Origin: Moniliella sp. 'wahieum'
Lineage: Eukaryota
NCBI GenBank assembly: GCA_003971905.1
Contig: RSEE01000023.1
Coordinates: 682,001-746,000 of the forward strand
Reading direction: 5' to 3'
Length of the DNA: 64,000 nt
Shown: piece by piece, positions 8,931 to 63,263 of the stretch
Layout of the letters: each line of letters begins with the position of its first letter
Numbering within the stretch: the stretch's first letter is position 1
The notes under the pieces: model-generated
What the model saw: only the letters and a program-made list of their open reading frames with translations
Told to the model about the DNA's origin: nothing
The model's database searches: none
Made by a program: the position numbers and the translations under genes

Positions 8931-10774
8931 TTAAGGAGGATAGATACGAGGGAGGAGGGTGGCAACGCGCACAAGAGGAGGGAAGCTGGTGGAGGGTAGA
9001 ACGGTAGTAGGGGGGGGATTAGGCCACACCGAATCTGAATGGGCCTCTTTTTCCTTGTCATCCTCTTCAATGTCGACGGGAGCGACAGTGGCAATGTGCT
9101 TGTCGGTAAAGTCATTGTAGGGATAAGGCAAGGGGTGGGCCTCGGGCCGCACGCCCGTCGCAATCTCCACAATCTCGGGGTGGATCGTGGTCGTCGGCCC
9201 AACAAAGTGCTTGCGCGCCTCAAAGATCCATGTCAACACACAGAAGAGAGCGATGACTGCCTCGGCCACAATGGTCCAGTTCATTTCGTTGCCCCCCGTA
9301 ACCGGTACGGCGGTGGGGAAGAAGAAGAAGACGGTCGTGACCAAATTAAAGGCAACGGCAATGATGTTGATCACCGGCCCGGCCCGGCCTAGGTTCCAGC
9401 TGCGCTGTTGACCCGGCGGAACATAAGCATCCAGGATGCCGCGTCCACGGAGAAGGATGATCACGACCGGAACCATATACGACGTCTGGAAGTTGATCAC
9501 GGACGAGTCGAGAATCGCTCCATACCCAGCGGGCGTGCCAAGGTAAATCAAACCAAAGACGGTGACCAGAAACTGGTAAAGGTGATTGCCATGACAGGCG
9601 TGTGGAGCGTCTTGCTTTCGTACTGCCACCAGCGGTGAAAGAACAAGGCGCGGTCCATCGCAAGCGAGTGCACAACCCGCGACGCGGCAGTCAGGATGCC
9701 CGTCGCGGCAAAGCACATGGACAAAAGGGGGAACATGTTGAGGCAAATGGCGCCGGCCTGGTTGCGCGTAGCTTGGTACAGGATCTCCAGGAGTGGACCT
9801 GCGCTCGAGGTAATCACCATGTTATAGTCGCTCAAGCAAAAGAGCAGAACGATGAGGAAGACAAGGCTCAGACTCGCGCCGAGCATAACGGCCATCACCA
9901 TAACTACACAGAAACACAACCAGTCAGCTTTGAGCATGGGTGAGACGAGAATGGATGGGAGTGCATGAACGTACTTGCAGGAACGTACTTGGCCGGGTTG
10001 TTCACCTCCTCGGCAATGTGCAATACCCCGTCAATACCTGTTATGAACAAAAAACGTTAGTGGAGGAAGCAGACGCGGGGGGGGGTATAGATGTACACAC
10101 CAGTCAAGGAGAAGGCCGATTGAAGCAAACCGAGGATCCAGGCCACCCCGTCAGGCCAGCCAGTGTGTTGACGAAAGTGGCAAACACGAATTTGCCGGTC
10201 TGGAACTTTCCCGAAGAGCAAGCGAGGCAGACGATCGACATGACCGTCACACCTGCAATCATCCAGAGAAGCGAAGCGCGATTGACCGTGTCAAGCAACT
10301 TGATGCCAAACACGTTGATAGCCCAGGCAGCAATGGTGAGAGCAAGGTAGATGAGGAAGATGTGCCAGTTCTTTACCTCATAGGTGGGATCGCGAAGGGC
10401 AATGATCCCGGTAACAAACTGAGCAAAGATCGAGGAGGCAGAAGCTGTGACGGCAATCCAGCCTGCACCATTGATCCAGGCTGTAATGTAGGAGATGACG
10501 ATGCGCCGCTTCGTGTACTGCACCCCCTGTGGTGCGCACAGAAGATAGGCCCAGCTCGAGACGCCGGACCAAATCGGGAGCATGCTGCAATCTCAGCCAG
10601 GGAGAGGGCCATGCACAAGATGCCACACCAGCTCGCCACCATGCCCCAGATAACTGCTTCAGGTCCACCCGAAGACAGGACAGTCGAGAGCGATCCCGAT
10701 GCTGCGATGGGCGAATTCAGAATGGACAGACTGACGCCGACGGCGGCCATGGGCCCAAAGGACTTGCGTGGCAT
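8931..10774 (-). CDS. APC-superfamily amino acid/choline/GABA permease (Hnm1/Uga4-like); the true start may lie further upstream
   Basis: Motifs MPRKSFGPMAAVGVSLSILNS..GGPEAVIWG..LSLAEI, SYITAWINGAGW, TAASRVVHSLA and WNLGRAGPVINIIAV. Spliced, with frameshifts. Confidence 0.88.
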
Positions 10775-19861: not shown

Positions 19862-21587
19862 TTAGTTGTTCATGTAGGAGCTCGAGTCAATGTGTCGGGC
19901 AGCTCGGGAATGGCTACCTCGAAACGAGACTGAATGTCCAGTACTTCTGGTCCTCCTCCGACGAGACAAACATGATGGCCAAACCCTTCGTGCCAAAGCG
20001 GCCGGCACGGCCCACACGATGGAGATACGAGTCGGCCTCGCCGGGCGTGTCGTACGAGATGGAAACGTTGCCCGCTCCACATCAATACCGCGGCCAAAGA
20101 TGTCAGTGGCAACGAGGATACGCTTCTCAAAGTTCTTGAACTGTTGGTACCGCTTGATCCGCTCCTCCTGGGAAGCGAACCATGGATCGAAATGGAAGGG
20201 AAGTTGCACTCCTGCAACAGCTTGTCCAGTTGATTCGCCCGCGAGACCGACTTGACAAAAATGATGACCTGGTTAAACTCAAGCGTGTCGAGCAAGTCGT
20301 TGAGCTTGCGGTTCTTCTGCGCCTCCTCGAGGCGGACATAGTGCTGCTGAAGACCGTGCAAGGTCAACTTGGTCTCGTCATCAACGTAAATCTCGAGCGG
20401 GTTCTGCATAAACTTCTTGCAAACAGGACGAATCTCCTTGGACAAGGTGGCAGAGAACATCATCACCTGCTTGTGATGGGGCGTGGCGCGGAAAATCTCC
20501 TGCACGTCGCGGCGCATGTCGATCGTTTCAAGCATCTTGTCGCACTCGTCCAGAACAAAGTGCTTGACCCCAGTTGCCTTCAACGACTTGTCCCGTACAG
20601 CGCATTCATCCGTCCGGGCGTACCGACAAGAATGTGGGGGCAACGAGCCTTGTCCTTCAGCAGCGCCTGGTCCTCCTTAATGGGGGTACCACCGTAGACA
20701 ACCGAGGTGCGCACCTCAGGCATGTACTTGGAGAAACGGAGGTACTCGTTCTTGATCTGGAAGGCCAACTCACGCGTGTGGCACATGACGATCACGCTCA
20801 CCTCCCCATCCACCGGTTCAATCTGTTGCAAAGTTGCCAGGACGAAGACGGCGGTCTTACCCATACCCGACTTGGCCTGGCAAAGCACGTCCATGCCAAG
20901 AATGGACTGGGATACATCTTGTTGGACTGTGGAATGAGATGGTTGGGAGGGGTCAGTTGCGGGCCTTCAGCAGCGTGGGTTGGAAATGGCGTACCTTCCG
21001 AAGGGTGCTCGAACCCAAGGTCACTGATGGCGCGCAGAAGCTCGGGCTTGAGCAAAAAGTCACGGAATCCAGTCGAGTGGATGCCTACGTAGGAGCCCTG
21101 ACGGCGGCGAAGAGAAAGGTAAGTAATGGTCGGAGAAGCTGGAGAAAGGTAAACAAATCCCCTAGTCGGGGCGGGGCGGGTCTGGCGTGGTCTGGTGTGG
21201 AACAGCCTGCCTGGCCAGTCCACAACGGGGCTTGCGGAGAAAAGCGGAGGGACAGGGTCCGACGCGTCCAAGCATCCGACAACATTGACCGGGGCCCAAC
21301 GACACGCAGCAACACGTTGCACCTGCGCAGGGGCCGCGCAGAGCACACAGCACAGTGCACCGATCCCGCCGAGACGAAGAGGAGGGTGGGGAATGGGACT
21401 CAGACTAAGATTGCATGCTGACCTTTTGGCGCCGTCGGCTTCGGCCGGGGCAGCGTCGGTGGACTCGCCGGTGGTGGCGGCGGGGGCGGGGCAACAATCT
21501 CCTCCTCGTAGTCGATGAGACTGGGCAGGGGTGGGGTTAGTGGTGGGATGGAGGGGGGGGGTGCGACACATACTCTTCGTTGTCCAT
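19862..21587 (-). CDS. SUB2: DECD-box RNA helicase Sub2/UAP56
   Basis: Motifs [62 protein letters not shown] and [13 protein letters not shown]. At least three introns. Confidence 0.96.
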
Positions 21588-22061
21588 GGCGAAGGGCAGA
21601 TGCACAGGTGGTGGTGGCCAGAAGAAGCGCGGCGGGCGACTCGCGTCGGGCGTGGGCAGGGACCGCCTGGGTCCTGTCGTCTCGGCGTGGCGTGTGCGGA
21701 TGAGGTAAGGGCGCGGGCACCGCACCAGCCTTGCGGCCCTCTCAGAAGAGAGTGCGGCTCGCACAGCGCCAATGCTGCCTGCGTGGCCGGGAGCGGAATG
21801 TTAATGAGGCGAGCGGAACCTGCTGGCATGGGTGCGTTGCGTTGCAGGCCACGTGTTCGCAGTCGAGCTGTGTCGCGGGCGAGGCAGGACGGAAACTTTC
21901 ACCGTGCCGTGCACGACACCAGCGAGGCAGCACTGGAGTGCGGGGGATGGGAGGCGGCGGCGCAGCGCCAGTGTCGGACGCGACTTACGAGATGCCGATC
22001 GGCGCAGCGCCAACTGGACGACCCCCAAGCCGACGCGCCCTCCCGCCCCCGTCCAGCAGCC

Positions 22062-24924
22062 ATGTCCAACGAACACAAGCACACGTCCGACTTGGGCTAT
22101 CAACCGCCGACAGCTGGGTGTGCCAACCTCCCCATTTCTCTTTGCATCACACGCTGACCTCGGGACCGCCCCAGCGTATTTCCACGATGGCTACTCGCTC
22201 AAGCAGTTCCAGGTCCTTTTGAACGTCGCCTTGGATCAGACGCGTTCTTTTGCCGGAGGTGTTCGTGACAACACCATGGCCTGCGTCTCTCATTACGGTC
22301 TCCTGCACCCCGAAAAGGTGCGCAACATTTTGATCATGGACTGTATGCCTTCGCACCCCCCAGGCCAGAGGGACCTACGGAGAGGGTAGAGGCGCTGCAA
22401 ATTATTCTGTTGGGCCGCAAGTCCACCTCGCAAGGTAACGAACCTGTCATGGGTGCGATGAGGAACAAGGACCCAAACCTGTGTTGTCTTTCGTCTCTAG
22501 CGCGCTATTTTTTCCACCGGTTGCAAATAGCAAGGGAACGCCGCCCGCAAGCATGGGGCGATGGAGTTTGCCCGCCCTTAACCGAACCCGACTCTTGGAT
22601 CGACTACCCGGTTTTTCCAGGCAACGACTGAGGGCCAGCCGGTCCAGCACCGATCTGCGGGAGGATTATGACGAGGGTGGCCCCAAGGATCGCCCCGAGG
22701 AGCCCGCAGAGGTTCCCGAAGAGGTTCCCGCAGAGGTTCCCGCAGAGGTTCCCGAAGACGACCCCGAAGACGACCCCGAAGACGACTCGAAGACGACCCC
22801 GAAAAGGTCCCCGAAGAGGTCCCGAAGACGACCCCGAAGAGGCCCCCAGAAGTTCCCGAGGAGGACCCGGGCAAGTCCAGCAAGTCCAGCAAGTCCAAAA
22901 GGCCAATCGGTCGTTCGCCGATGTCTTCTTTGGGTCATTACAACGCGGTGCTGCGGTGTTTGAGGGAAGCGGGATCGAGAGTTCCAAAAAGACCCTCATC
23001 TTCCGTTGGAGCGTGCTCGTATCGCTGAGTCGCTGGGTGTACCAGGTGATGCGGTCAATAGGGCTGCGCGTTGGGTACACCAACCAGATTACAGTACTAC
23101 AGTCCCGTTTGCATGGGCCTGGTACGCGCGCTGAGTGGATGGGCGCCCCAAGGTGGTTCCTATTTCCTCCCCCGAGGTCAGCTCGACCCCTGACAATCTT
23201 TTGCGCCAAATTTTCCCGACTTGGACCAGGAGGAGGAGAAAACTCGATAAAGCGCTTCAGGAGTGCGCGCCCCTCCCCGGTGGCGCAAGGGGAAAGAAGC
23301 GTACATATGAAGGGATTGAGGTCAGCAACAGGCGTGAGCAGCTTATGGTGGCGAAACACTTCGCCAGTTGCTGAGGATGTTTCGCCGAATCATCCTACAA
23401 GATGCACCTTTTTGGTCTGACACCGTATGCAACCGCCGTATTTTGAAGTTGGACGTGTTCCGGTCACCAGAGTACAATGAGTGGTGCGATCAGCTCAAGA
23501 CTTATGTCGCTGAACAGCTGCCGCTTGAGTTTTCCCTCGAACGGGCAGTGCCTGAGCTCACTGCTTTCATTCAGCAGTGTGTTGGGAAGGTCAATGCCAA
23601 GATGGAGTCTGTGGAGGATGCGGTTCACTTGTTTGCGGAAGCTCAAGAATCGTCCGATGCGATAACGACCCAGATGGCCAATGCTGTGGCCAGTTCACTG
23701 CCCCGTTTGGAAGAGTTGATCAAGGGCAACGGGGTCACCTGGACGCGTGCGACTTGAGCGTACAGGGTATGCGGAGTGAATTGGAGAGCCTCAAACCCAA
23801 AATGGAGGGCATCGAGACCAATGTGGAGGGCATCGAGACCAAACTGGAGGGCATGGCGAACGAAATGAAGGGCATGGCGACCATGCTTGCCGCCATCGCG
23901 GGTCGCATAGGCGTTCCACAGGATGCGATTGGCCCCCCACCCCGTCGTGTGTCTCCACCCGCCGCAGGCCTGGCTCCCATCCCCGTTCCCCCGTGCCTCC
24001 CCAAGAAGCTTCACGCTCGTCCGCGGGTCCAACGGCCTCCGCTGTGCCTCCTTCCGATGACCATGTGCTTACTTTGGAAAGACGTGTTGGCACTGTTCCT
24101 AACCCTGGTGCATTTCCGCCTCCGGTGCTTGTTACCCCCACCCTGTTCGGGAAATAGGGCCTTCTGCGTCTGCTGTGCCTACTGCGCTGCTGTGCCTACT
24201 GCGTATGCTGCTTGCCTGCTGTGCCTGCTGTGCCTACTGGCGTCTGCTGCGTCTGCTGCATCTGCTGCGCCACGATCGGAAGTCGCCTGGGCCCAATAGC
24301 TGTCGCCGCTCCGACCCCCCCGCCTCTATTCCAAGCAGCATGATTACGGTTGCGTGTGAAACGCTACTTCAGACCATCCCACCCCCTCCTGCACCTCCTG
24401 CTCCCTTTCCCAGTGAACTGACTGCTCCCTTTCCCAGTGAACTGACGCTGCGTCCGAACGTCGCGTCCGTAACTGCTGCCTGGGAGGAGTGGGACAGGGG
24501 GTGGGGGGGAGTGCTTTGTCTGCGGGATCAGCTTAAGCCGCCGCCGCGATTCAACGGGCCCGATGGACGGCGACGACCTGGTCTCAAAGCGGTCGGTGGT
24601 TCGCAAGAGAACATGCTCAAACGCCGTCGCAAGGTTGGCCGGCGCATGGAACAGCTCATCGCCACGTACAAGGTCAAGCTCACCACGTCCGAAATTGTCA
24701 AGCGGGTCCACACTGCCTTTGAAATGCTGGGCAAGAAGCGAGGCGGGTTCACACAGATCTGCGACAAATTAACACTAATCCACGACGCTGACTTGGTCTT
24801 GCCAGAGAAGGAATGGACTATGGCCAAGGTTGAGCAAGTCTGGAGCGGACTACGTCGACAAAAAGGACCTGAAACGACGGTGCAGGCACTGCAGTCCCGT
24901 CACGATCAAACAAGTGAAGCTTGA
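22062..24924 (+). mobile_element. Crypton (CryptonF)/Ndc10-type tyrosine-recombinase-derived gene with a C-terminal GCR1_C domain; probably domesticated or inactive
   Basis: Collinear Crypton/NDC10_II-like motifs: DGYS, SHYGLLHPEKVR, GRKSTSQG..GAMRNKDPNLCCLSSLARYFFHR, WIDYPVFPG, KKTLIFR, GVPGDAVNRAARW, QYYSP..VRALSGW, YFLPR..IFP and FRRIILQDAP. GCR1_C-like SVTAAWEEWDRGWGG near 24465-24510. Confidence 0.8.
22694..22897 (+). repeat. Intragenic minisatellite: 12-bp units (GCAGAGGTTCCC / GAAGACGACCCC) followed by 9-bp CAAGTCCAG units
   Basis: Visible tandem units encoding EEVP/AEVP/EDDP and QVQ. Confidence 0.85.
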
Positions 24925-36120: not shown

Positions 36121-39100
36121 TTAGAGGATGCCCTGGGAGTAGTATGGAACTGGTCGTAGAGCCGGGTAATGCAGAGCCGGCCGAGTTGAGGATGAGGCGA
36201 TCGACAATTCGTCGCTCTGCTCGGCGCTGAGCGCGAGCTGGAAGCGCTGCCGCAGCTGGTTGGCCGCCTCCTCGCCGAGCGCAAAGCAAGGCAGCCGCGA
36301 ATCGCGCGCCATCAGCTCACAATCATGATGATCCGCTCTGCCTCCTTGCGCACGTCCCGGAACGCCTGCCGCATCAACTGTCGGAACTGATCAAACTTGC
36401 TGCTCTCCATGCCGCCCAGCAGATCAATGTACTCCTGCGGCATCTTGAATGGCGCCGCCTCGAACCCCACACCAGGCGAGATGCCGAGCATAAAGCCAAA
36501 GTCAATGTCTGTCACATACAATCCCTGTCAGTTTCCTCTTCCTCCTTCCTCCATTCCCCCCCCCCCCCTCCCACCACCACTCGGACGGAGAGCAAGGACG
36601 TACGGATCAAGTGGCCCTCGTGGTCGACGAGGATGTTGCCATTGTGGCGGTCCTTGATCTGCAGGAGATAGCAGATGATCGAGTAGGCCGCCAGCGACCG
36701 CATAAACGCATCCTGGGCGCGTTTGAACTTGCCCGACGAAGGCGGGCCATAGACCTGGGTGTAGTGGTCCCAGAGCGAGTAGGTGCGGATCGGCTCGGAG
36801 CCAGCGCCTTCCGAGGCGTGCGAGTAGGCCTCCTTTTTGATCGAGTGCACCGACACGGCATCGGTGATGGTCTCCATCACCCCCGACGACTCGGAAGTGA
36901 CGAGGATGTTAAAGTAGCGCACCCACACCCCGGATCCCTCGGCGTGCCAGATCGATCAAACTCGCCAATGAGCTGGGTGGCCAGCTGCTCCTGCCGCAGG
37001 TCCGCGCCGGTTTTGATAATGACGCTGATCACGTCCCAGTGCGCATGCGCGCCATACGGCGACGCGGCGCGCAACCGCTCCCGCTTGGCGGCCCACGACT
37101 CGCGGAAGATGGCGCAGAGGGATCATCTTTGTTCACCACCGCACGGATCGTGTCCGCATCCTCTTCGCCCCCCGCTGCCTCGTCGGTACCCGCGAACGCG
37201 TTCCGCTTGGCCTTGGCTTTGGCCTTGGCCTTGTGCGAGCACACGGGCCCACGCAACCGCGCCATTCGCTCCTCCTCCAACGAGATCATCTCCGCCATGA
37301 TGCGTGCCCGAATCGCTTCTGCGTCCGCAGGGATGGTGCGTGCCGCACTCGAGCTGCTCACCACCGCCCCACCGCCCGCAGCACTCACTCCGCCATTCAT
37401 TGCGCTGGGCGGAACCGATGTGCGGCGGCGGTACTGTTTGTGCCCACGAGGGCAAGAGCTTGCTCACCACCCCTGCCGTTCCCTGCCCCGGTTCGGAGGA
37501 CGCAGGCGCGGCGCAGGCGCAGACGCAGACGCACCAACGCCTACTAGCGACGCAGCCCCGCTCGCGGCGGCACCCAAGGGCGCCGTGATGACCCAGCCCT
37601 TGCGCGCGCGGTTCTGGTTGAGCTGGGCAAGCATGATGGCCGCGGTGCGCATGCGCTCCGAGTAATCTGCCAGGCTAAACTCGCGTTCCTCCTTGCCGTC
37701 GCTCGAGTGAACATGAGACCCGCGCGAGCCGCGCCAGACCATCGTGTCGTGGACCGGTTGCGCGACGAGCCCGAGGCAAAGGGGCCCGGTTCAAGGCCAT
37801 CCGGCTCGGATTCCGACGAATCGGGATCTTCTTGCCCGCCAAACCGTTCGAGGTGCGAGCCATACGCCTGTTCCGTCATATCCACCCCTTCGGCCTCGGG
37901 GGATCGTCGTCAACAGAAGCTCTGCACCACCTGCATCGTCCACGCTCACCTCGGACACCATGCTTTCGTCGGCCCAGTCACCAGCCTGTGCCTCGGCTTC
38001 GCTGGGCCGTCGGGAGAATGGGCCAAGGCCAGGGAAGAGGAAAGGGAAGGATGGTCCGTGTGCGCCTTTTGCCCCAGAGGTGGCCGGGCTCCATGCGAAC
38101 CAGGCGCGCTCTGACTCAAGGACCGCTTGAGCCCATCCGAAGGCGGCGGACTCAGTGCCGGGCCTGACGTGTGGGCGTCACGGTGGGTGCGGCACGGGTC
38201 CAAGAGGGGTGAGGAGACATCGAGACGGGTGTGCGAAGCTGCTGAGCGGGTTCGACAGCGTCCGGGCCGCGCCATTGCGTCGGGGGACAAGGTGGCTGCC
38301 GAGCCGCCGGGGGCAGGGGGGAGCCTGATTGCGCGCGCGGCACGGGAGTGGGCTTCTTTGGTCAACAGCCGCCGCATTGTGTCCCGGTTGGCGCGGCGGT
38401 CCGGGTCAAAGTCGAGGTCATTGCGCAGGACCTCAATCTGCAGCACATACGGTGCGCGGTCCGCCGAGTTGAGCACCACCGCCTCGGACGGATTGATTCG
38501 GACTATGCGGTGGTGGCGCGCTTGCTTGCCCGGCACAGACGTCCCATCCCCATGTGCGTCGTGGTGCTTGTGCCGGCCCATCACGTCCGACGTGGCGGCA
38601 CACCAAGCGGGAGACAGCTTCAAGGGGGAGCATGTGGTTCAGTTCTGTCAGCTCTGCCCGCAACGCCGATACACGTGCCGGTTTCGGAAGCAGTAACAGC
38701 CGTCCCGAAATCGATCGAGCCGGGCCAGAAAGTCGGTTTGGGTGCGGGCATAGTGCGAGCGGAGGAGCGCAACCCGCTCCTCGTACGGCACGTCGCTACC
38801 AAGCGCAGGCGCAGGCGCGTGCGCTTCGCTCGGTATCGAAGCGGCACTGAGCCTTTGCCCACGTAGGCGGAACAGGTTTCCTGACGAACTGCTCGGTGCT
38901 TGTCGCGCCAGATTGGGCACACTGGCCCCCCTTGCCAAGTTGGGCGTGGACTGGCTCGGTGCACCTCGAGCGAGATGGCCAAGATTGAAGCTGGTGGGAG
39001 GAGGGCCCGGGTGGGGCGAAGAATAAATCATCGATCGCGCTGCCTGGTGTGAACCGTACGCTGCACCAGGGATCGATCCGGGGTCTTTGGTGGCTCCATC

Positions 39101-40578
39101 ACCGTCCCGGGGGGAGGTTGAATCAGTTGGGTAAAGGCCAGGCTGGGTCGTGCTCGCTGCACGGGCCCACAAGGTGGGAGGCGTATTGCCAAACCCTTCG
39201 GGACCGAGGAGGCATAGGTGTACCCGTAGGGGCCTTGCGTGGGAGCTGCAAGGCGATTGCCAGCTTGGTGCACCATGGGCGAAGGAGAGCCAGATACGAG
39301 CTGCGGCGAGGGCGGGAGTGGTGGGGGTGGCGCAAGCGTTTGTTGCGTTTGGGTTCGCTACTCGACCAGGCGCAAGCATCCCGGGGGGAGGTACGATTTG
39401 GACTTGGGACATACCAGCGGCCAGCATGCCCGCTGCGCGGTCCTTGAGCTCAGCCAGCTTCTCAGACGTGCTGTTGGACCAAAGAGATGCCCCCCACGAC
39501 CCCCACGAGGACGAAGCGAACGTTTGGGTCCAGCCAGCGCCACCGGCTTCCTCACGTCCAAGAAACGGGGCCGAGTGGGCGCGTTGGTGCGGCGCGCCGT
39601 CTGGCAGAGCAAGATTCGTCGCGTCATTCGGGGACAGGGAGGATGGCGATTCAACGCGGGGGAACAAAGACGACTCTTCCCTCCTAGCGGGTGGAGAGGC
39701 CAAAGGAAGATTTGGCTGCGCCTGGTGGGCGTCTGTGCCGTGTTCCGGGTCCGAAGTCGCGCCCAGGCTAAAGGAAGTGGGGCTCTTGGAGGGTAGTGGA
39801 GGTGGCACTTGCTGTTCCTCCGTGTCCGAAGCACTGCTGGAGCTGAGAAAGACGCGTCGTCGCCCTCATCGTCACTCGGTTCCTCGTCCGCAGCGCGGCG
39901 GAGCAGCCGTCAAACTCATCCGGCGCGGGCTTGCAGCCTTCAAGAATGGTCATTGGACCGGCTGCGGTCATGATGGCCGGTTGCCCAGGCGTCGAGGCAG
40001 CCATGGACGCCATTCCGACCAGAGTGGTCAGAGCATGGGCCGGGTGGACGCGCACGGCCTTGCCTCTGCAGGGCTAGCGCGGGCGGCGGCGGCGAAAGGG
40101 AGCGGCCCAGGCGGCCCAGGGCGACATGGGCCCGTCCTGGGTGGGCGGGATGGCGGTGGAGACGTCATCGCTGGCATGGGGGACAGAGGGCGGCGGCGCC
40201 TGGGCATCAAAGAGGAGGCGCTGGCAGTGGTTGATCACGCGGCGGCTCACCAGCAGCGCGGGCGAGGAGGGATCGCCGGACCAGTCGGCGCGGGCGGCCT
40301 GGAAGAACCAGAGGGTAATGAGCGCGGTATGCACCGAGTCGCCGCAGCGCGCGAGGATGAAGTGCTCGAGCGCGGCCGAGGGCCCGTCGGGGCGGCTGAT
40401 GAGCAGGTGGCAGAGCTGGGGCCAGTAGACGCGCACCTGGTCCCAGGGGAAGGCGCGTTCGAGGGCGCGGACGAGGTAGTGGGTGATGCCGACGCTGTCC
40501 CAGTACGTCTTGAGGTAGGTGATGGCGAGGGGGGCGTGAAGTGACGAGTGGAGAGAGCCGGAGCAGCAGCTCGGCCAT
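36121..40578 (-). CDS. PIK1: Phosphatidylinositol 4-kinase type III beta (Pik1)
   Basis: N-terminus MAELLLRL..GITHYL..YWPQLCHLL, then IVRINPSEAVVLNSADRAPY, SVIIKTGADLRQEQLATQLI, SLAAYSIICYLLQIKDRHNGNIL and IDFGFML..SPG.VGFEAAPFK. Ends YYSQGIL. Confidence 0.94.
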
Positions 40579-41583
40579 CCTGGGCGGCGCAGAGGAGGTG
40601 GTGGGCGGAGCGAGCAGGTGCGCGTGGCTGGCCAGCGCACGCCGTGTGAGCAGGGCGATGCGTGACGGGCTGCCACGCCACACACTGGCCCTGCGCCGCC
40701 GCGGCCAACCCTAGTGCGGGCGGCGCGGAATGTGCGGGGTGCGGCGCACGGGGGGGAGTAACTAGTAACCACGGCCATATGGCAGCAACCACGAGCGGGT
40801 TTGTATACTAGCTCTTTTTCCTCCCCACGAGGTGCCCTGTAATGGATCACTCCAACCGGCATTGTTCCGTTGGTCCGACGCCCTACTGGTTAAAGAGGCG
40901 CCAGTGGGGTGTACCAAATTCTACGAGAACTGCCAAGGGGGAGGGGGGTTCGTCTTCGGTTCATGACCTGGTGCCACAGCAGTATGTACGCACCCGAGAA
41001 GAACGGAGAAGAAGTCATATGATCATCATCGCCTACCAGTTCGCCATGTTGGACCTAAGCAATACTTCCATCCAACGCAATGACGTCGGCGATGTAGCAA
41101 CCCCGGGTATGCACTCCATGGTTCAGATACAGCTAATTCTGTTTTCTGCGCCTCTGTGTCCCCTCTCTCGCACCCCTGTCGTCAGACCCCATATACTACC
41201 ACAAAAAGTACGCCCTGGCATATATTTTGAGGATCCCTTTTCTCCCCTCCGCCTCCCCCACATCTCACAAGAACGTGCCCATGGCACCTAGGCGGCCTGG
41301 GGAAGGCATCTGCGGGTAATAGCAGGCTCTCGCAACAAGGTGTTCGGGTGTGGAGCTGTATTTAGGTGGCTCAGAAAGGATGCGTGCTAGTGAAACGTTC
41401 AGTGTTGGTTAGCTTTGACTGGCGTGGCCGCGGGCGGCGGAATGCGCGTCCACAATAGGCCAGGTGGGTAGCGAGCAGTTCCGCCCCCCGCCTCCTCGCC
41501 TCCCCGCCCACCTAGCGGGGTGCGTCCATTCCATCGCCGCCACGGGCCGCGTCGCGTTTCTCTTGCCAGCCAGCTTGCCCACC

Positions 41584-43247
41584 ATGCCTCGCGCCCTCCG
41601 ACACACCGCAGCCTCAAGCGTTCGCCCAGCCCCTTCGATGACATCGACGCTCCCTCCCCCACCGCCCGTAGGCCCATCCCACCCTACGACGCCAGCGGCG
41701 ACGAGAGCCAGGCGACCCAGCGCCTTCCTCCCCCCCCGGTGGGCCAGACGCCGCGCCTTCCTCGGTTGCCGACGATGCGTCCGATATGGAGGAGAGCGGA
41801 CGCCGTGGCTCTTATCATGAGCCTCCCCCCGACGAGCCATCTGTCCAGTGTCTCTGGCACAACTGCGGCCGAAGATACACCGAACTCCACGGGCTCATTG
41901 ACCATCTGCACCAAGGTTCGTCATCTCGGTTCTCTTCGCTTCCTTACTCTGCCGTGCCCTACTGACGCATCGTCTCTTCAGATCACATTGGCACCCACAA
42001 AAAACGCTACAGTTGCGAGTGGGTGGGCTGCTCGCGCAAGTCTCGCACTCAAACCTCTAGGTTTGCCCTGCTGAGCCACTTGCGCAGTCATACGGGAGAG
42101 AAACCCTTTACGTGCCCCCTGGTAGATTGCGACAAGTCCTTACCGTTCCGATGCGCTCGCCAAGCATATGCGTTCCCAGCACCAGATGGTTCCCATTCCC
42201 ACACGCCGCGCCAAACCTCGTCGCTCCCTCCGCAAACCCGACGAGCAAGGTCAGACAGTGAAGATGAAGCGGTGGAGATGGTGACGCTCTCCGACTATGA
42301 ACCAATTGACAAGCCGCCAGTCGTCATCCACCCCGGTGCTCGTGGACGCCAATTTAACGATGAGGCGTTGGGAATTACGCGGGAGCCGTTGGGCTCGGAG
42401 AGTGAGGAGTATGAGATCCGTCAAGTTCGCATCAAAGCTGCCAAGCTAATGCGGGACCAGCATGGGGTGGGAACGGGGACGATCCCAGATGGAGAAGGCC
42501 CTGGTCACACTGCTCCTGCAGGCCAGTCAGGGCAATTGGCTAGCTCCTCCTCTAGCCCGTTCAGCACCGACGTGTCCGCGGACGAGGATGAGACGGAGGA
42601 GGAGCCGATGAATGTGGGCTCGCCCCCACTTCGACGACCCAATCCGTTGGATCTGATCAACAACACTGCTGGCGGTCCCACGGGAGAGAGTAAGAATGGC
42701 AGGCATGAGGCAGATAGGAAACCTGCCCGGCCCATGCCCCCAAAGCGGACCAAGAAGGATTACAAGAAGCGCTATCTATCTCCAAGGCCAAATTCCAGTT
42801 CCTTCACGCAGAGCACCAGGAGCTGGTGCGGGAGTTGGACCAACTTCGTCAGGACTACGAGGCGATGCAAGAGTACAAGTCAGACGAACTCAACTCCGCT
42901 CTCGCCCTGGAACTTGGGTGCGTTCGCCCCACCCCCCTTTCTCTCTTCCCCCCCTGCGTTCCTGCCTCGGAATACTGACCGCATACCTGCTATATCCAGC
43001 GAAGATGTTGAGGCCAATTTTCCCCCCCGGGCACCCCCCACCCATGCAGTCCTACACCGAGCTCGTGGAGCCCCGCCGAGGGATACTGAGCACGACCCGC
43101 CAGTTCTTGGGGCTCGGAACGAGGAATCCCCTTTCCATGAGGTCCACCCTCCGCCCCCCTGGAATATGTATCTCCGCCAAAACAGGTCCCCATCCACATT
43201 CCATGCTGGGAGACACTTGGATCGATGACTGGCATAGCAAGGGATAG
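41584..43247 (+). CDS. C2H2 zinc-finger protein, similar to the INO80-complex subunit Iec1; ends approximate
   Basis: HIGTHKKRYSCEWVGCSRKSRTQTSRFALLSHLRSHTGEKPFTCPLVDCDKS..RSDALAKHMRSQH matches the Iec1-type finger array as I recall it. Confidence 0.75.
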
Positions 43248-51522: not shown

Positions 51523-52147
51523 TTACACGCTCTTGAAGTTCTTGCCCACACCGCCGGCAGCCCTTCATCTGCTGCTTGGAGAGCTTGGGAGCCGCGGCGG
51601 AACCGGCCTTCTTGGCCTCCTTGCGAGCCTCGGCACGCGCCTTCTTCTCCTCCTTGGACTTGGACTTGGCCGCGTCGCGGGCCGCCGAGCGCACTTCGGG
51701 CTTCTGGTTGCGCTTGGCCTGGATGTTAGCCAGCGAGAGACCGACCACACCACGCTGGTGCTTGACCGTCTTGCGCGAGCGCTTCTTGGCCACCTCCTCC
51801 GAGATGCCCTTCTTGTGCATGCGGCGGAAGTACACCGTCCAGGCAATCTTACGCGGGTTCTTGCGCTGCAGGAACAGCTGCTCGGTCTTGTGCGAGTTGA
51901 AGCGGTAGACCTTGCCGTCACCAGAGCGCACAAACAGGCGGCCCCGGCTGGGGTACCTTGCGCAGCGAGAAAGAGTCCGTCTCCACCTGTCCCACCGCAG
52001 AGGCTGGTCAGTTTCCATCCTGCCGCCACCGCCTTGTGGCATCCGAAGAGCACCCAAGGCAGAAAAGGGGACACGGAACGTCCGCCCCACGGTGCCCAGG
52101 CGTGCGGACGACACGAGGAGGCCATCCCCGAGTACACGTACCTTCAT
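51523..52147 (-). CDS. RPL24: 60S ribosomal protein eL24
   Basis: MK|intron|[72 protein letters not shown]. Confidence 0.96.
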
Positions 52148-56659: not shown

Positions 56660-58329
56660 TCATGTCAAACGAGGGGTGGGGTGGGACGTACGATTAAACA
56701 AGAACCACCATTTGCGCAAGAAGCGTTCGGACAGTTCGTACGCCTCGGGATCGAAGAGGTCATCGCCATGGACTATGTAAGCCGTGTCCCACACATTGTC
56801 CGATTCCAGCGCCCACATATCGGCGCACAAGTCGAATTGGCTAAAGTGGCCGGCCCACAGGTGCCGCAACACCTCGTCCCGCACCGACTGCCAGGGAAAG
56901 CACGCGTCAATAAAAAAGTGATGCGGTACCGTCGCAGCCAACTGGCTGGGATGCAATGCGTCGGGTACCACATGCCACCGCAACTGTCCTTGTGGCCGTT
57001 TGCGTGAGGGACCACGCAAAAGTGGCTCGTCCTGCCAATCGGACGAGGAAGTAAGTGAGGCACGGGGGGCAGTGGGTGCGCCCACTGCACCAGGCGAGAG
57101 GCGCATCGACATGGAATCCGAGCCAGGCTCCGTGGTGGAACAGTACTGCGCAAAGTCGTCGGCCAAATAGGAGAGTTGGTACTCATCGTCCCAGACGGCC
57201 AGCTCAATGCCAAGGAGCTCCCTCATGCGATAATACACGTGCTCGACAGGGAAGGTAGGCAGAACGCGAGTGTCATTCCACGCACTGGCCAACAGAGCCT
57301 TGGAGAACAGGTCCGGAGAAAACCAACTTGGGTCGGACCCACGGCTCGGCCGCTTGGCCACAACGCCACGTGGTTCCTTAGATGCCTCTCGGTCTGTTTG
57401 GAATGTAGGTGGGGGCACCAACAGAGTACTCGCGAACAGCCCTGGGCTTGGTATCCATTCCCCCGACTTGCCATTGCAATCCAAGGGTGGATTGTTGGTC
57501 AAAAGAGAAGGGGTGGAAGGATTGGTAGGCAGCATGTCCCGAACAGAGCGGGCGTGGCAGGACTGGCATCACCTGTTCCCACCACGGAACCGAAACTTTC
57601 CTCATTGGCACCACTCTTCTCGACGGGAGACGTGTCGTGGCGCGGTGTGCGATCACCTCGGTGTCTCCGTCCTCACGATCGACAGAATCCAAGCCGGCCG
57701 CCAAGGCAGTGTAGAAGGCCACAGCCTCGCGCCGCATGGCATCCCGTCCAGTTCCTGCGGCCCCACTGCAGACGTGGGTGCATCGCGTGCGTAGGTAAGC
57801 CATGTTTCGAGGCATCGGCATCGGACGAGGCGCATGGGGATGACGTGGAAGCCGACGAGGCGGACGTGGCGTCAGGTCGGGGGCCAGCTTCCCGAGGCCA
57901 GACTGGACTGTCGCAGTGGGTCGGGTTGGGCACGGGGGTGAGCCATGGGACGGGCGGGGCCAGCGCAGAAAGGTCCAACAAGGGGTCCAGCAACTGCGGC
58001 AGATCGGCATCGGTTGAGAGGGGAGGCACCGCGCTTGCATCGAGTGGTGGTGGCGGCTTGCTCGCGTGGAGGGGCAGCGACAGCACAGCGGGATCGTAGA
58101 CGAGAGGAGGCGGAGGGGCGTGAGAGACGGGGATGGCACGGGAGACTTGGGCGGTCGGGCTTGCGCGACACGGTCGGACGCACTCGCCCCACTTCTCGCA
58201 GCGAAGATGGCGCGCCCTGGGCATCGGGTCAAAGCCACGCTTGCGCAGGCGCAAGCGCGTCTGGGCCAGACGGTTCTGCTCCCTTCGTCTCCGTTGGCGT
58301 GCTTGGAGCTCCTCGGGGGTGAGGACCAT
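56660..58329 (-). CDS. bZIP-basic-region plus DUF3425 domain transcription factor
   Basis: N-terminal RRRREQNRLAQTRLRLRK. C-terminal LHPSQLAATVPHHFFIDACFPWQSVRD..DPEAYELSERFLRKWWFLF (DUF3425-type). Confidence 0.8.
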
Positions 58330-58976: not shown

Positions 58977-59519
58977 TCATCGGGACTCCCATACTTGCAT
59001 GTCAAATCCCTCCACCAGCGCCGGGTCGTCCTGCTCCCACACACAAAGGGACGAATCGCCGGTACGGTAAGCAAACAGACATCGCAGGTTGGCGTATGGG
59101 GGCACATCGGACCGGCAGAGGACTTACCTTGTAGGTGGGGCCGAATCCGGCAAAGCCATCGCGCAAGACCAGGATCTGCTGTGGGGCCAGGGGCACCTTG
59201 GCCTGGCGCGCAAAGGCTGCCCGGGCCTCCGAGTAGATGCGCGCCGCCTTGGGCCCTCGTGCTTGGGACAGGTGGCAGTGGAAGACGACCTTTGACTTGT
59301 CCTTCAGCTCCTGGACCAAGTCGGACACGAGCGTGTCCGCCTGGGCGTCGCCGCGGGCGAGGTGGACGGTAGGCCTGTTGAGAGCACCGAGGATGTGGCC
59401 GCCAACAAAGTCGTCGTCGCGTGCGTCGACAATGGCGAGCTGGTCGCGCGTACGGGCATCTTTGAGCTGGGCAGCGAGGTCGGAGGCGTTGATGTACGTG
59501 TAGGCAGCGTGAAGGACAT
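58977..59519 (-). CDS. Cdc25-like rhodanese phosphatase / arsenate reductase (Ych1/Ibp1/Acr2 family)
   Basis: IVDARDDDFVGGHILGA, active site VFHCHLSQARGP (HCX5R) and VLRDGF. Intron near 59031-59127; last exon DDPALVEGFD..WESR*. Confidence 0.88.
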
Positions 59520-60509
59520 GCCAACGGGGCGAGCGGAAGCAGGCAGACAAGGCTGGGGTGAGGGTGCCAACGCCCGAGCGCATTGCGCGGTGGGCGTTCC
59601 GAAGCCAGGACAGAAGCGGTGGATTGCGGGTGGCGGCAAGGTTGGTAGGTGCTCTGCCAGCGCCAGGCGCTGTTGTTGCAGGGACGCAGATGGACGGGAT
59701 GCAATGGTGATGCGCCAGGTCTGTCACTGTGACATGCATAGTGACTAGCTTGAAGCTCGACGGAGAAGCGCAGCCGCATGTCAGACCACAGTGACTAGTG
59801 ACATGCACATGCGACGAGCGCTGCCCTGTGTTGCAAGGGTTTTGTTACCACTAGTACCTGCGGTTACCGGTTACCTGTCACTTGTGTTACTCTTCGCGGT
59901 ACTCGGTACACTTCGTCATACTCATGCTGCCGCGCGCAACGCGTAACGCGTTACGTGTAACATGTACCGACTTTTGGCATGTCCTCCTGTCCTCAACACG
60001 CCTCAGGGCCTCCGAACTGAGGCTCAGTTCTGAGGGGGCTCATCGATTTCATCCATCGACCTAACCCGATCTTCAGGTGTCGCCGCCACCGCAACCAAAC
60101 CGGCATGGCAGGGCACCTGGTCAGGCGGCAATGCCGCTGACGGGCTGCGCACACGTTGAACCAACACCCCATTCCGCCCATTCCGCTGGGCATTCCTCGG
60201 CTGCCGCCCAGGCAGGGCTGATGCATGATGCATGATGCTCGGGAGGGAGAGGGAGCGGGACGTACCAGGGCCCTGGCCCGCCCGCAGCCTCCCGCACTCG
60301 CCCGGCCTTGGCTGTGCTCGGCCGGGGCAGGCATGAGCATGGTGTGGGATGCCGCGGACGTGGTGTGGATGAGATCGATGACGCAGGGCAGCGATCGCAT
60401 CCATAGTCAATCTAGTCAATGGCGCAGCCAACTCACGCACACCCTCCCTCCCTCCCATCCCAGCCTCACCCCCACCGCCACCGCCACCTCCACCACCATC
60501 TCGCGCGCC

Positions 60510-63263
60510 ATGCCGCCCCCCCACCCCCGCCCACCCACCCAAATGCCGCAGAAGCGCACCCAGGCCGTCTTCGCTGCTGCCCCACCGCAGCCTGTCCCGG
60601 TCACGCTCGCTGTCATGTCGCGCTGCCCCGACGCCCACTTCTGCGAGGCCGTGTTTGACGAGGTGCTGCCCCTGGTGCCCACCAGCCACCTCGACCTGGC
60701 ACTCACCTACATTGGAACCCCCGACCCCGCTGCCACGTACGGCGTGCGATGCATGCACGGCGACGCCGAGTGTCGCGGCAACATCCATCAGCTTTGCGCA
60801 GCTCGCGCCTTGGCCCCTGTTCCCGGCGTTGCCGGCGTTCCAGACCACAACCGAGCACTATTGGACTTTGTCCTGTGCTCCAACTCGGACAAGGAATCCA
60901 TTGGACAAGACGCGGCCGCTGAGCGGTGCTGGGCTCAAAGCCAGCCCCACAGCATCCACACGTCCTTCCCCCCCTGGCACGCCATTCAATCTTGCGTCGA
61001 CGACCCGGCCCAAGGACAGGCACTTCTCCTGTCCAGTGTTATTGACACGTCTCGGCACAACGTTCGCTCCTCTTGCACCGTCCTCATCGACCACATTTCT
61101 CCCTCCTGTATCCGCGACGGGGAACTTGGCGCGACTGCCCGCCTGACGTAGGTACCGAGCCAAAGGATTTTGCCATGCAAATCGAGCAGGCTTGGCGCAA
61201 GCGAGTATCTCCCTTTGCCCAACAGTCGACCATCATTGAAGCTCCTTCATCCCATCTGTTCAAGCGCCAACCCCCTGATATGGTTCCGACGTCATCAGCG
61301 AACAATGACGATCCCCCCTCCCCCGTCGCCCCTGTGGGGACAACCTCCGCCTCCCGTCCGGGTGACAACTCCGACCAAGGGGACCACAAGTCAGGAGGTA
61401 CCAACCCTGCCATTTTGCGGGTGCCATTACAGGCGCTGTGGTTGCGATTATCATCGCAGTTGCTCTGTTGCGCTTTCTCCGCCGCCGTCGCACTGGCCAA
61501 TCCTTCTTCGGGTCAATCAGGACTCGAGCCCCGGCTTCCCGTGCTGCGCCGGCGGGTGCTACTGCACGTACGACCGGTGCAGCTACCGGGCGTGGTGGCG
61601 GTACAGATGCTACCACCCCTCGATCGGCCATCGTTACAGAGGATGACCCCTTGAAGCCACCCAAGCTGTGGGATGCCAAGGTTGCCGACTTTGATACTCT
61701 GGCCAAGCTAGGCTATGCCTATCCGGCTTCCGACAACAAGCAAACGGTCACCATGATTGGGACCGAATTGTGCCGGTAGCGGCCGCACTCTCTCCGCAAC
61801 TGTACCCCATCTTGTTTGCTGACCAGGACGAGAAGGCCACCGCTCACACATCGTCGACTTCCGCAGCTGGTACCACTGACGTCCGGCGCCGAGTCAAGTC
61901 GATGCGTGAGAGTCGCGCAGGCACAGGATCCGGTAGGGAGGATTCAGCGGTGGAGAATGAGGCGACACCTGCCAGTGTCATGTGACTGTGTTGATTGCGA
62001 TGCCGACGGAATCGACAGTGGTACCTTCTAGTTCGGAAGGAGATCTCCTTCCGGCTAGGCGGTGCAGATGCTTCAATCGGAAGCGGGTGTCGCGCCTCTA
62101 TCTGCTGGTCCAAGATGGCCGGCATGCTTCGATGCGTTCCACCCGCTCCAATCGCTCTTTCCGCTCGATTCGTTCTTCTGCCTCGGCTCGCTCGGTTGCC
62201 TCAGCGCGCCGGTCTGCCTTCTTTGGTGAGGATTATGATCCCGCCCTTGACCCTGCTGCCGACAAGGACGAGAAGAACAAGAACAAGATGCGAGTTGATC
62301 TAGTGGACACAGAGCCGTCTGGCGCTTGAGCGATGCTGGGTCTTCATCGGAGGATAACAAGGACAATGATGACGATACTATGACGAGGACGAAGACGCCG
62401 AGGCAGAGGGGATCCTTTCTGAGCTCATGTTTGGCACAGCCTCAGTACCGATCTATACGCTCGAATCCGCTTCCAACGCCAACCGGATTGGCTCGCGCTC
62501 CGGATCCGGGGTGTACACGGGCGGGTTCACCTACTCCTCTCGCGCGCCGCCTTCGCGAAACGACTTGTATGCATTGCTGGCCCGTGCGCAGGACGTGCGA
62601 GAGAACAAGCCCATCCCGCGGATGGACATTGCTGCGCCACAGGGGGAGTCTGCGCCTGACCATCCAGGGTCCCTCTTAGCACCCCTACAACGGGCTCCAC
62701 GCCGGTGCGCGTGCCTTCGACGTTGGGCACCTCGCTTGCCCCCGCGCGATCTGCAGTGGGGAGCATCCATTCCACCGCGCACCCGCTCGCCGCTTCGCCT
62801 CCGCCGCTTGCCACCTCTCCGCCGCCTATGGGACGGAACGCTTCCACCCGTTCCTCCCAGCCTCTCCAGCCACCTGCAAGTCCGGCTCGGTCGTTGCCCA
62901 CACGGGCGCTAGGGACCAGTTCGCCGCGCCAGTATCCCTCCCCGCCGCCCGGACACACCTTCCTCCCCTCCCCAACCCGTGGGCTGCCGTGCCCCCTGCA
63001 TCGTCGTCGCCTTCGCCGCTAGGTTCGTTGGGCGTCAGCGTGCCCTCGCGCTCGGCCTCTGGTGCGCCCGCACCGATCTTCGCGTGGTGGAGGAAGAAGA
63101 GCCAGCTAGCCCCGGTGTCGCCCAGCTTGCTGCTACGCCCCCCCTGGCCCGGCCGACGCTACGCCGGCTCAGCCGGCGCCTGAGACGGATCGCAGTTGGC
63201 TCGGCTCCTTGCAGTGAGTGGCGCCTCGGATGCAGCTCATGCTTCATGCTTCATGGCGCCTAG
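60510..63263 (+). CDS. GILT-like thiol reductase domain apparently continuous with a single-pass membrane protein and long disordered tail; may be two genes, ends approximate
   Basis: VTLAVMSRCPDAHFCE and GILT signature CMHGDAECRGNIHQLCA at about 60600-60800. TM segment AGAITGAVVAIIIAVALLRFLRRRR at about 61410-61490. Confidence 0.65.

Follow-up and report, generated by a model that had tools for sequence, protein, structure and literature searches.

The DNA considered here is a stretch of 64,000 nucleotides from Moniliella sp. 'wahieum' (assembly GCA_003971905.1, contig RSEE01000023.1, positions 682,001 to 746,000 of the forward strand), which we call the window, and all positions are counted from its first letter. 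It is eukaryotic, with genes of fungal type and a guanine plus cytosine (GC) content of 0.53-0.65. At 22062-24924 on the plus strand lies a gene derived from a Crypton, and its divergent neighbour is the SUB2/UAP56 DEAD-box helicase gene (19867-21590, minus strand). From 22180 to 24924 the Crypton-derived gene is collinear with CryptonF proteins, with an NDC10_II-type tyrosine-recombinase domain that leads through a helical region and linkers of low complexity to a tail with weak GCR1_C likeness. An earlier note on this DNA had described a series of Crypton/NDC10_II-like motifs in one open reading frame (ORF). The motifs are real; the single ORF had to be given up, as the motifs are scattered among pieces of 25-273 residues that contain no stop and belong to three frames, with 9-12 frame changes that leave no room for introns.

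The NDC10_II/Crypton-type tyrosine-recombinase domain, delimited by Pfam, tblastn and frameshift-aware alignments, occupies 22180-23340 on the plus strand, like all parts of the gene. The DGY motif, placed by alignment to relatives, stands at 22186, and about nine single-base frame changes cross the domain (near 22357 and 22629, one within 22640-22900, then 22951, 23013, 23078, two at 23183, and 23337). A low-complexity loop insert at 22697-22897 consists, according to Tandem Repeats Finder (TRF), of a 12-nt unit that occurs about 13 times and encodes an acidic sequence rich in Pro and Glu, and then of a 9-nt unit that occurs three times; in the family alignment this loop varies, and the members P0016 and P0019 have variable inserts there too. 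The end of the recombinase and the helical region (23338-23754) are collinear with the intact Cryptons L002 and L003, and a stretch 'AVPE...GKV' in it resembles L003 when the sequences are compared by eye. There follow four copies of a 21-nt unit (23797-23883, TRF), whose seven-residue translation reads as possibly coiled-coil-like, and a low-complexity linker (24159-24446) of 9/18-nt repeats (24159-24271) and two copies of a 24-nt unit (24398-24446). The C-terminal region, with a partial GCR1_C-like start at 24445-24510, covers 24445-24924 and ends with a stop codon at 24922-24924.

Judged by sequence comparison, the gene is a descendant of a CryptonF-type recombinase. The profile search that the earlier note had proposed gave a match of Pfam NDC10_II to the piece 22269-22628 (E=5e-6, 26.2 bits vs a cut-off of 26.3, profile positions 79-143), and a faint one to the piece 23338-23754 (E=0.11, profile 278-316). 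With pieces of intact metagenomic Cryptons as queries, tblastn gave E=7e-14 at 22180-22520 (L004_A), E=1.9e-10 (L001_A) and E=2.4e-4 at 23338-23754 (L002_B), and identity to L004 over two blocks of the first half of the gene was 49% and 37%. These queries come from a metagenome scan that found four loci (L001-L004), 31-47% identical and with no close relative among them, which carry intact Crypton genes with introns and whose pieces pass Pfam NDC10_II. A HMMER search of representative proteins gave six matches at E<=0.001, five of them fragments that are 38-45% identical; the sixth, P0001, was discarded as a spurious hit to a repeat protein. One piece of L004 retrieved 26 more family members (P0007-P0032), every one of them with PF16787. 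No match at E<=0.001 was obtained in a word-based search with 22269-22628 against longer proteins, none in the same kind of search with the C-terminal 169 residues, and none at E<=1 when the PDB sequences were searched with an intact Crypton piece. An Atlas search with 23338-23754 returned nucleoporin-like helical clusters only, with scores of at most 0.84, which we took as noise. For P0006, the second half was aligned separately and in a frameshift-aware manner; the repeat insert misleads whole-protein alignment. L004 and P0007-P0032 together form a tightly conserved Crypton subfamily from several sources, with 25 of the 26 being 54-92% identical over the catalytic half (L004:435-1276), and this subfamily is probably a widespread, active element group of environmental fungi.

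In the recombinases Cre and Flp, a change of the first catalytic Arg abolishes cleavage while DNA binding remains. The positions that we take to be catalytic in the window gene were assigned from the recombinase literature, and they agree with a passage in PMC13465315. According to that passage, two members of the R-H-R-Y set, the first Arg and the His, contribute to activating and stabilising the scissile phosphate. Both are replaced here, as the earlier note had read from the letters. At 22300-22314 the gene reads LLHPE for LLRGE, with His for Arg at 22306 and Pro for Gly at 22309, and all eight relatives that cover the position read LRGE. Because LLHPE lies inside an uninterrupted 59-codon stretch of frame 1 (22180-22356), and because going from Arg-Gly to His-Pro requires three base changes, it is not a frame artefact. 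The HxxR motif reads T-H-x-x-R in the 26 aligned sequences covering it, and TLIFR in place of THIFR here (22992-23006), with Leu for His at 22995. This frame-0 reading, TLIFRWS at 22992-23012, matches THIFRGS of L004 in five of seven residues, and the distance from the conserved Gly-Ile to Ala-Arg is by our own count two bases below the family length, which fits two deletions and an ungapped alignment. A frame-2 reading, in which the His is one position off and the Arg is lost, is less probable in view of its poorer fit to the family; the motif is intact in neither reading.

Four of the six catalytic positions are kept, which also agrees with the earlier note. The Lys aligns at 22419-22421 (RKST for GKTN of the family), the second Arg at 23004, the Trp within Arg-Trp at 23069-23074 and the Tyr at 23095-23100 within QYY (23092-23100), where the nucleophile aligns at 23098; the frame-2 alternative of the Tyr region, DYSTTVP, likewise retains a Tyr. 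As aligned, the complete set Arg, Lys, His-x-x-Arg, His/Trp and Tyr of active CryptonF proteins is not present, two of its six positions being replaced.

The gene runs through the frames 1, 0, 2, 1, 0, 2, 1, (0), 2, 1 ... 1, and each step is compatible with the deletion of one base. Over 2.74 kb this amounts to 12 frame changes with deletions alone, or to 9 where an insertion may stand in for two deletions. Introns cannot explain them, because neighbouring pieces overlap or abut and the homology continues directly in the next frame. SUB2, with at least five single-base deletions, served as a control for assembly errors, and five of them fall in 1.1 kb, again with no room for introns. One of its frames matches human UAP56 residues 164-288 and 364-381 and a second matches 285-322, while a third, in our own reading of the translation, carries the block between those matches. 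A single base is missing at each of four junctions in the last ~390 nt of SUB2, and a fifth near 20585, where two overlapping pieces match adjoining positions of the DEAD profile. An amino-acid permease gene near 9575 (minus strand) is likewise split between overlapping frames, and the longest stop-to-stop frame anywhere in the 64 kb has at most 469 residues. Within coding sequence, single bases are dropped at 19867-20200, 20585 and 9575 (all minus strand), and the rate of loss in this assembly is about one in every 200-250 nt. Since the essential SUB2 has a similar density of them, the frame breaks of the Crypton-derived gene are most likely one-nucleotide deletion errors of the assembly, and they are therefore uninformative on whether the gene is dead. 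In the N-terminal part of SUB2 (21430-21590, minus strand), one frame gives MDNEE, another gives LIDYEEE and then a proline run, and it looks as if the first exon holds a further frame change.

The active elements L001, L002 and L004 have ~120-240 residues ahead of DGY. A tblastn search of the upstream DNA with three N-terminal pieces of these elements matched none of them at E<=1, although frame errors lower the sensitivity of such a search, and SUB2, which starts near 21587 on the other strand, leaves a spacer of only ~0.5-0.6 kb. The N-terminal part thus appears to be missing, as had been proposed. A start about 20 codons before DGY had been proposed as well, and an ATG at 22062 stands 22 codons ahead of it, but in a different frame. 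The two frames join if a candidate intron of 55 nt (22120-22174; GTGCCA...CTGAC (22154)...CAG) is spliced out; this would remove an in-frame stop at 22155-22157 and would make 22062-22119, 19 codons and 1 nt, a putative first exon. An alternative donor, GTGTGC at 22118, looks better, but its join is off by one base.

At the other end, the last ~160 residues begin in a GCR1_C-like manner. BLASTP against the GCR1_C of L003 detected the first half (E=4e-4) but not the second (E=3.5); tblastn with L003_mid on the C-terminal region gave E=0.003, and Pfam GCR1_C gave E=0.057, with 14.1 bits vs a cut-off of 23, over profile positions 2-23 of 80. The evidence for the C-terminal GCR1_C-like domain of the earlier note is therefore weak and partial, and it bears on the first half. 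As a lead, an Atlas search with the C-terminus gave a cluster (score 0.89) with GCR1_C on 20% of its members, and the few recorded members are mostly Basidiomycota. L003 itself passes the Pfam GCR1_C cut-off with both halves. In that element (L003:1331-1678) a single in-frame TAG splits the two halves, being either a nonsense mutation in that copy or a very short unrecognised intron.

How far the gene has moved from its relatives can be seen from the columns that the family holds constant. In the first half it keeps 16 of the 22 columns in which every relative, out of seven or more, has the same residue. In the second half, where a column was counted if at most one of 24 or more sequences of two subfamilies deviates, it keeps 13 of 22, against 16 of 18 for the natural member with the lowest conservation. 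Overall, 15 of 44 family-invariant positions are changed, and when the L004-type subfamily is taken alone 18 of 38 columns are kept; close to frame junctions, the alignment itself may account for some of the losses. Measured in this way, the gene clearly lies outside the constraint regime of the active elements.

One explanation is that the gene is an inert, 5'-truncated Crypton remnant, stranded beside SUB2 without host function and decaying, with some of its frame changes being real. It is in keeping with the lack of a detected N-terminal domain, with the two replaced catalytic residues and about a third of the family-invariant positions changed, with 9-12 frame changes of which five fall inside 232 nt, with GC at third codon positions (GC3) below that of host genes, with the barely recognisable GCR1_C and with three protein searches that gave no close homologue. 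The frame changes, however, resemble those of SUB2 in density and kind, and neither insertions nor larger indels are required. The 282 homology-supported codons contain no in-frame stop, whereas neutral simulations at the observed residue change of 34% gave a mean of 4.5 stops and only 4 of 300 runs free of them (12 of 300 at 20% change and 55 of 300 at 10%). Avoiding stops over 22186-24921 takes a minimum of 9 deletion-type shifts on the gene strand and 20 on the reverse strand, against 29.7 +/- 5.1 (minimum 15) in 300 shuffles and a mean of 18.3 in 246 tiles of the window, among which the gene is one of the most open. The five tandem arrays have basic units of 12, 9, 21, 9/18 and 24 nt (TRF), all divisible by three. 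For two of these arrays TRF gave other unit lengths as well (23, 24, 35 and 17 nt), and the 35-nt row, top-scoring for the first array, fits three 12-nt units minus one base. GC by codon position is 0.59/0.46/0.62, which is coding-like. Taken together, and with the presence of one copy only in the window, these observations speak against a long-dead relic. Long neutral decay is disfavoured, and the pattern fits a frame held open by selection that does not act on catalysis; an inert remnant is quite possible, though somewhat less likely than a kept gene.

The gene could instead be a still-mobile, non-autonomous Crypton that is moved in trans by intact copies elsewhere, maybe with a function as a transposon-encoded regulator. 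This would agree with its collinearity with the entire C-terminal two thirds of CryptonF proteins and with an ORF that appears open, but there is no second copy within the 64-kb window (a self-BLAST of 21-27 kb against the window showed no repeat), no element ends are recognisable, and the many changed family-invariant residues speak against a recent origin from an active copy, so that we consider it unlikely. That the gene is an active autonomous Crypton whose defects are assembly artefacts is very improbable even in an error-rich assembly, because the observed errors are single-base deletions and not substitutions such as the three in-frame base changes from Arg-Gly to His-Pro, the Leu that replaces His is read in a frame that agrees with the family at five of seven residues, and there is no room for an N-terminal region of the length found in L001, L002 and L004.

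The reading that we favour, a kept, non-catalytic Crypton-derived gene, probably with an open frame and with a DNA-binding or chromatin role, has in our judgement close to an even chance of being right. The earlier note had gone as far as a domestication into such a factor; CryptonF descent, two catalytic changes, absence of the N-terminal domain, one copy in 64 kb and the behaviour of an open gene go together with that interpretation, and host domestication is plausible. The shortness of the spacer to SUB2 and the in-frame ATG that the candidate intron would provide also speak for a kept gene. Several observations weigh against it. The NDC10_II score is 0.1 bit below the Pfam cut-off, albeit for a fragment query, and the support for GCR1_C is below the Pfam threshold as well. 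Around each frame junction, the residues of a few codons on either side are in doubt, some frameshifts masked by the assembly errors may be genuine, and five shifts lie within 232 nt of the catalytic core (22951-23183), which is not decisive, as SUB2 has four within 275 nt. As many as 43 of the 246 window tiles need 12 shifts or fewer, so openness alone is weak evidence, and the GC3 of 0.62, lower than the 0.78 of other pieces of host genes, would suit a sequence that is poorly adapted or comes from a transposon.

Ndc10 of budding yeast is a recombinase fold that serves DNA binding only, and a kept Crypton-derived gene could work in a similar manner. With the first Arg changed to His and the His of HxxR changed to Leu, the protein would bind DNA but would not be able to cut or recombine it. 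Its plan would be that of the ancestor, with the recombinase fold, the helical region and at least the start of a GCR1_C-type tail, to which repeat-encoded and probably disordered linkers have been added. The DNA would be held by the dead recombinase fold, by the C-terminal domain as a possible second contact, or by both, and the helical region or the seven-residue repeats may pair two chains. If the host has kept the protein for such a non-catalytic role on DNA or chromatin, its history would run parallel to that of Gcr1 and Ndc10. More specifically, and only tentatively, since we rate it at somewhat short of an even chance, the locus may represent an independent CryptonF domestication outside the budding yeasts, in which a non-catalytic DNA-binding or chromatin protein was fixed beside SUB2. 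The N-terminal domain would have disappeared, while the dead recombinase fold and the beginning of the GCR1_C tail were retained, and a helix for pairing and disordered linkers made of repeats would be new.

The rest of the window holds other fungal-type genes. Besides SUB2/UAP56 and the amino-acid permease, there are genes for ribosomal protein L24e (RPL24; 51794-51955, minus strand), a DUF3425 protein (56663-57568, minus), a rhodanese-domain protein (59005-59844, minus), a C2H2 zinc-finger protein (41966-43225, plus) and a GILT-type thiol reductase (60222-61148, plus). A PIK1-type phosphatidylinositol 4-kinase gene lies at 36515-40889 on the minus strand, with a kinase piece at 36515-36955 and a PIK accessory domain within 40077-40889; any one frame shows short pieces only, presumably from the same loss of bases. 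Calls of frameshifts, pseudogenes or altered residues in this assembly need a control gene.

Among known systems, the CryptonF proteins themselves are the nearest; in our comparisons L001-L004 and P0007-P0032 stand for them. They combine recombinase and GCR1_C domains, and CryptonF includes fungal and oomycete Cryptons, according to the parts of Kojima & Jurka (2011, PMC3212892) that describe the group. The window gene has the same order of recombinase, helical region and, at least in its start, GCR1_C-type tail, and keeps Lys, the second Arg, Trp and Tyr, but it differs in the replaced Arg and HxxR His, in the 15 of 44 changed invariant columns, in the lack of the N-terminal domain and in its large repeat-encoded inserts; it also lacks the intron that follows 'FYR' in L004.

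The passages on yeasts in the same source (PMC3212892) derive Gcr1, Msn1, Hot1, Cbf2/Ndc10 and Cdg1 of Saccharomycotina from CryptonF, describe the catalytic site as lost from the recombinase-like parts of Cbf2 and Gcr1, and state that no Crypton insertions remain in Saccharomycotina. The window gene resembles these proteins in the loss of the catalytic site, in its partly GCR1_C-like C-terminal region and in the proposed non-catalytic DNA binding, a likeness drawn through published descriptions of the yeast proteins, and it differs in that it keeps four of six catalytic positions. On present evidence it does not appear to be an orthologue of the Ndc10/Gcr1 group, since the sequences closest to it are of the transposon type, in line with an independent event. 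By analogy, it would be the same kind of object as the yeast Crypton-derived genes, at an earlier stage of change. The animal DUF3504 genes KCTD1, ZMYM2-4 and QRICH1 derive from CryptonA, as stated in the relevant passages of PMC3212892 and PMC13465315. They too have kept the recombinase domain without the R-H-R-Y residues and reused it in regulators; they belong to another Crypton group and domain family, and are likened to the window gene by the kind of event. At the level of titles and abstracts, we found no report of such a Crypton-derived gene in basidiomycetes.

In budding yeasts, the kinetochore protein Ndc10 and the transcription factors Gcr1, Msn1 and Hot1 arose from Crypton recombinases, as did regulators in animals. 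If our reading is true, the window gene would be a separate case in another fungal lineage, and the reuse of Crypton recombinases would be recurrent. It would also be an intermediate form, whose entire fold can still be read along with four of six catalytic positions, and would allow one to ask which features persist when an enzyme turns into a DNA-binding protein.

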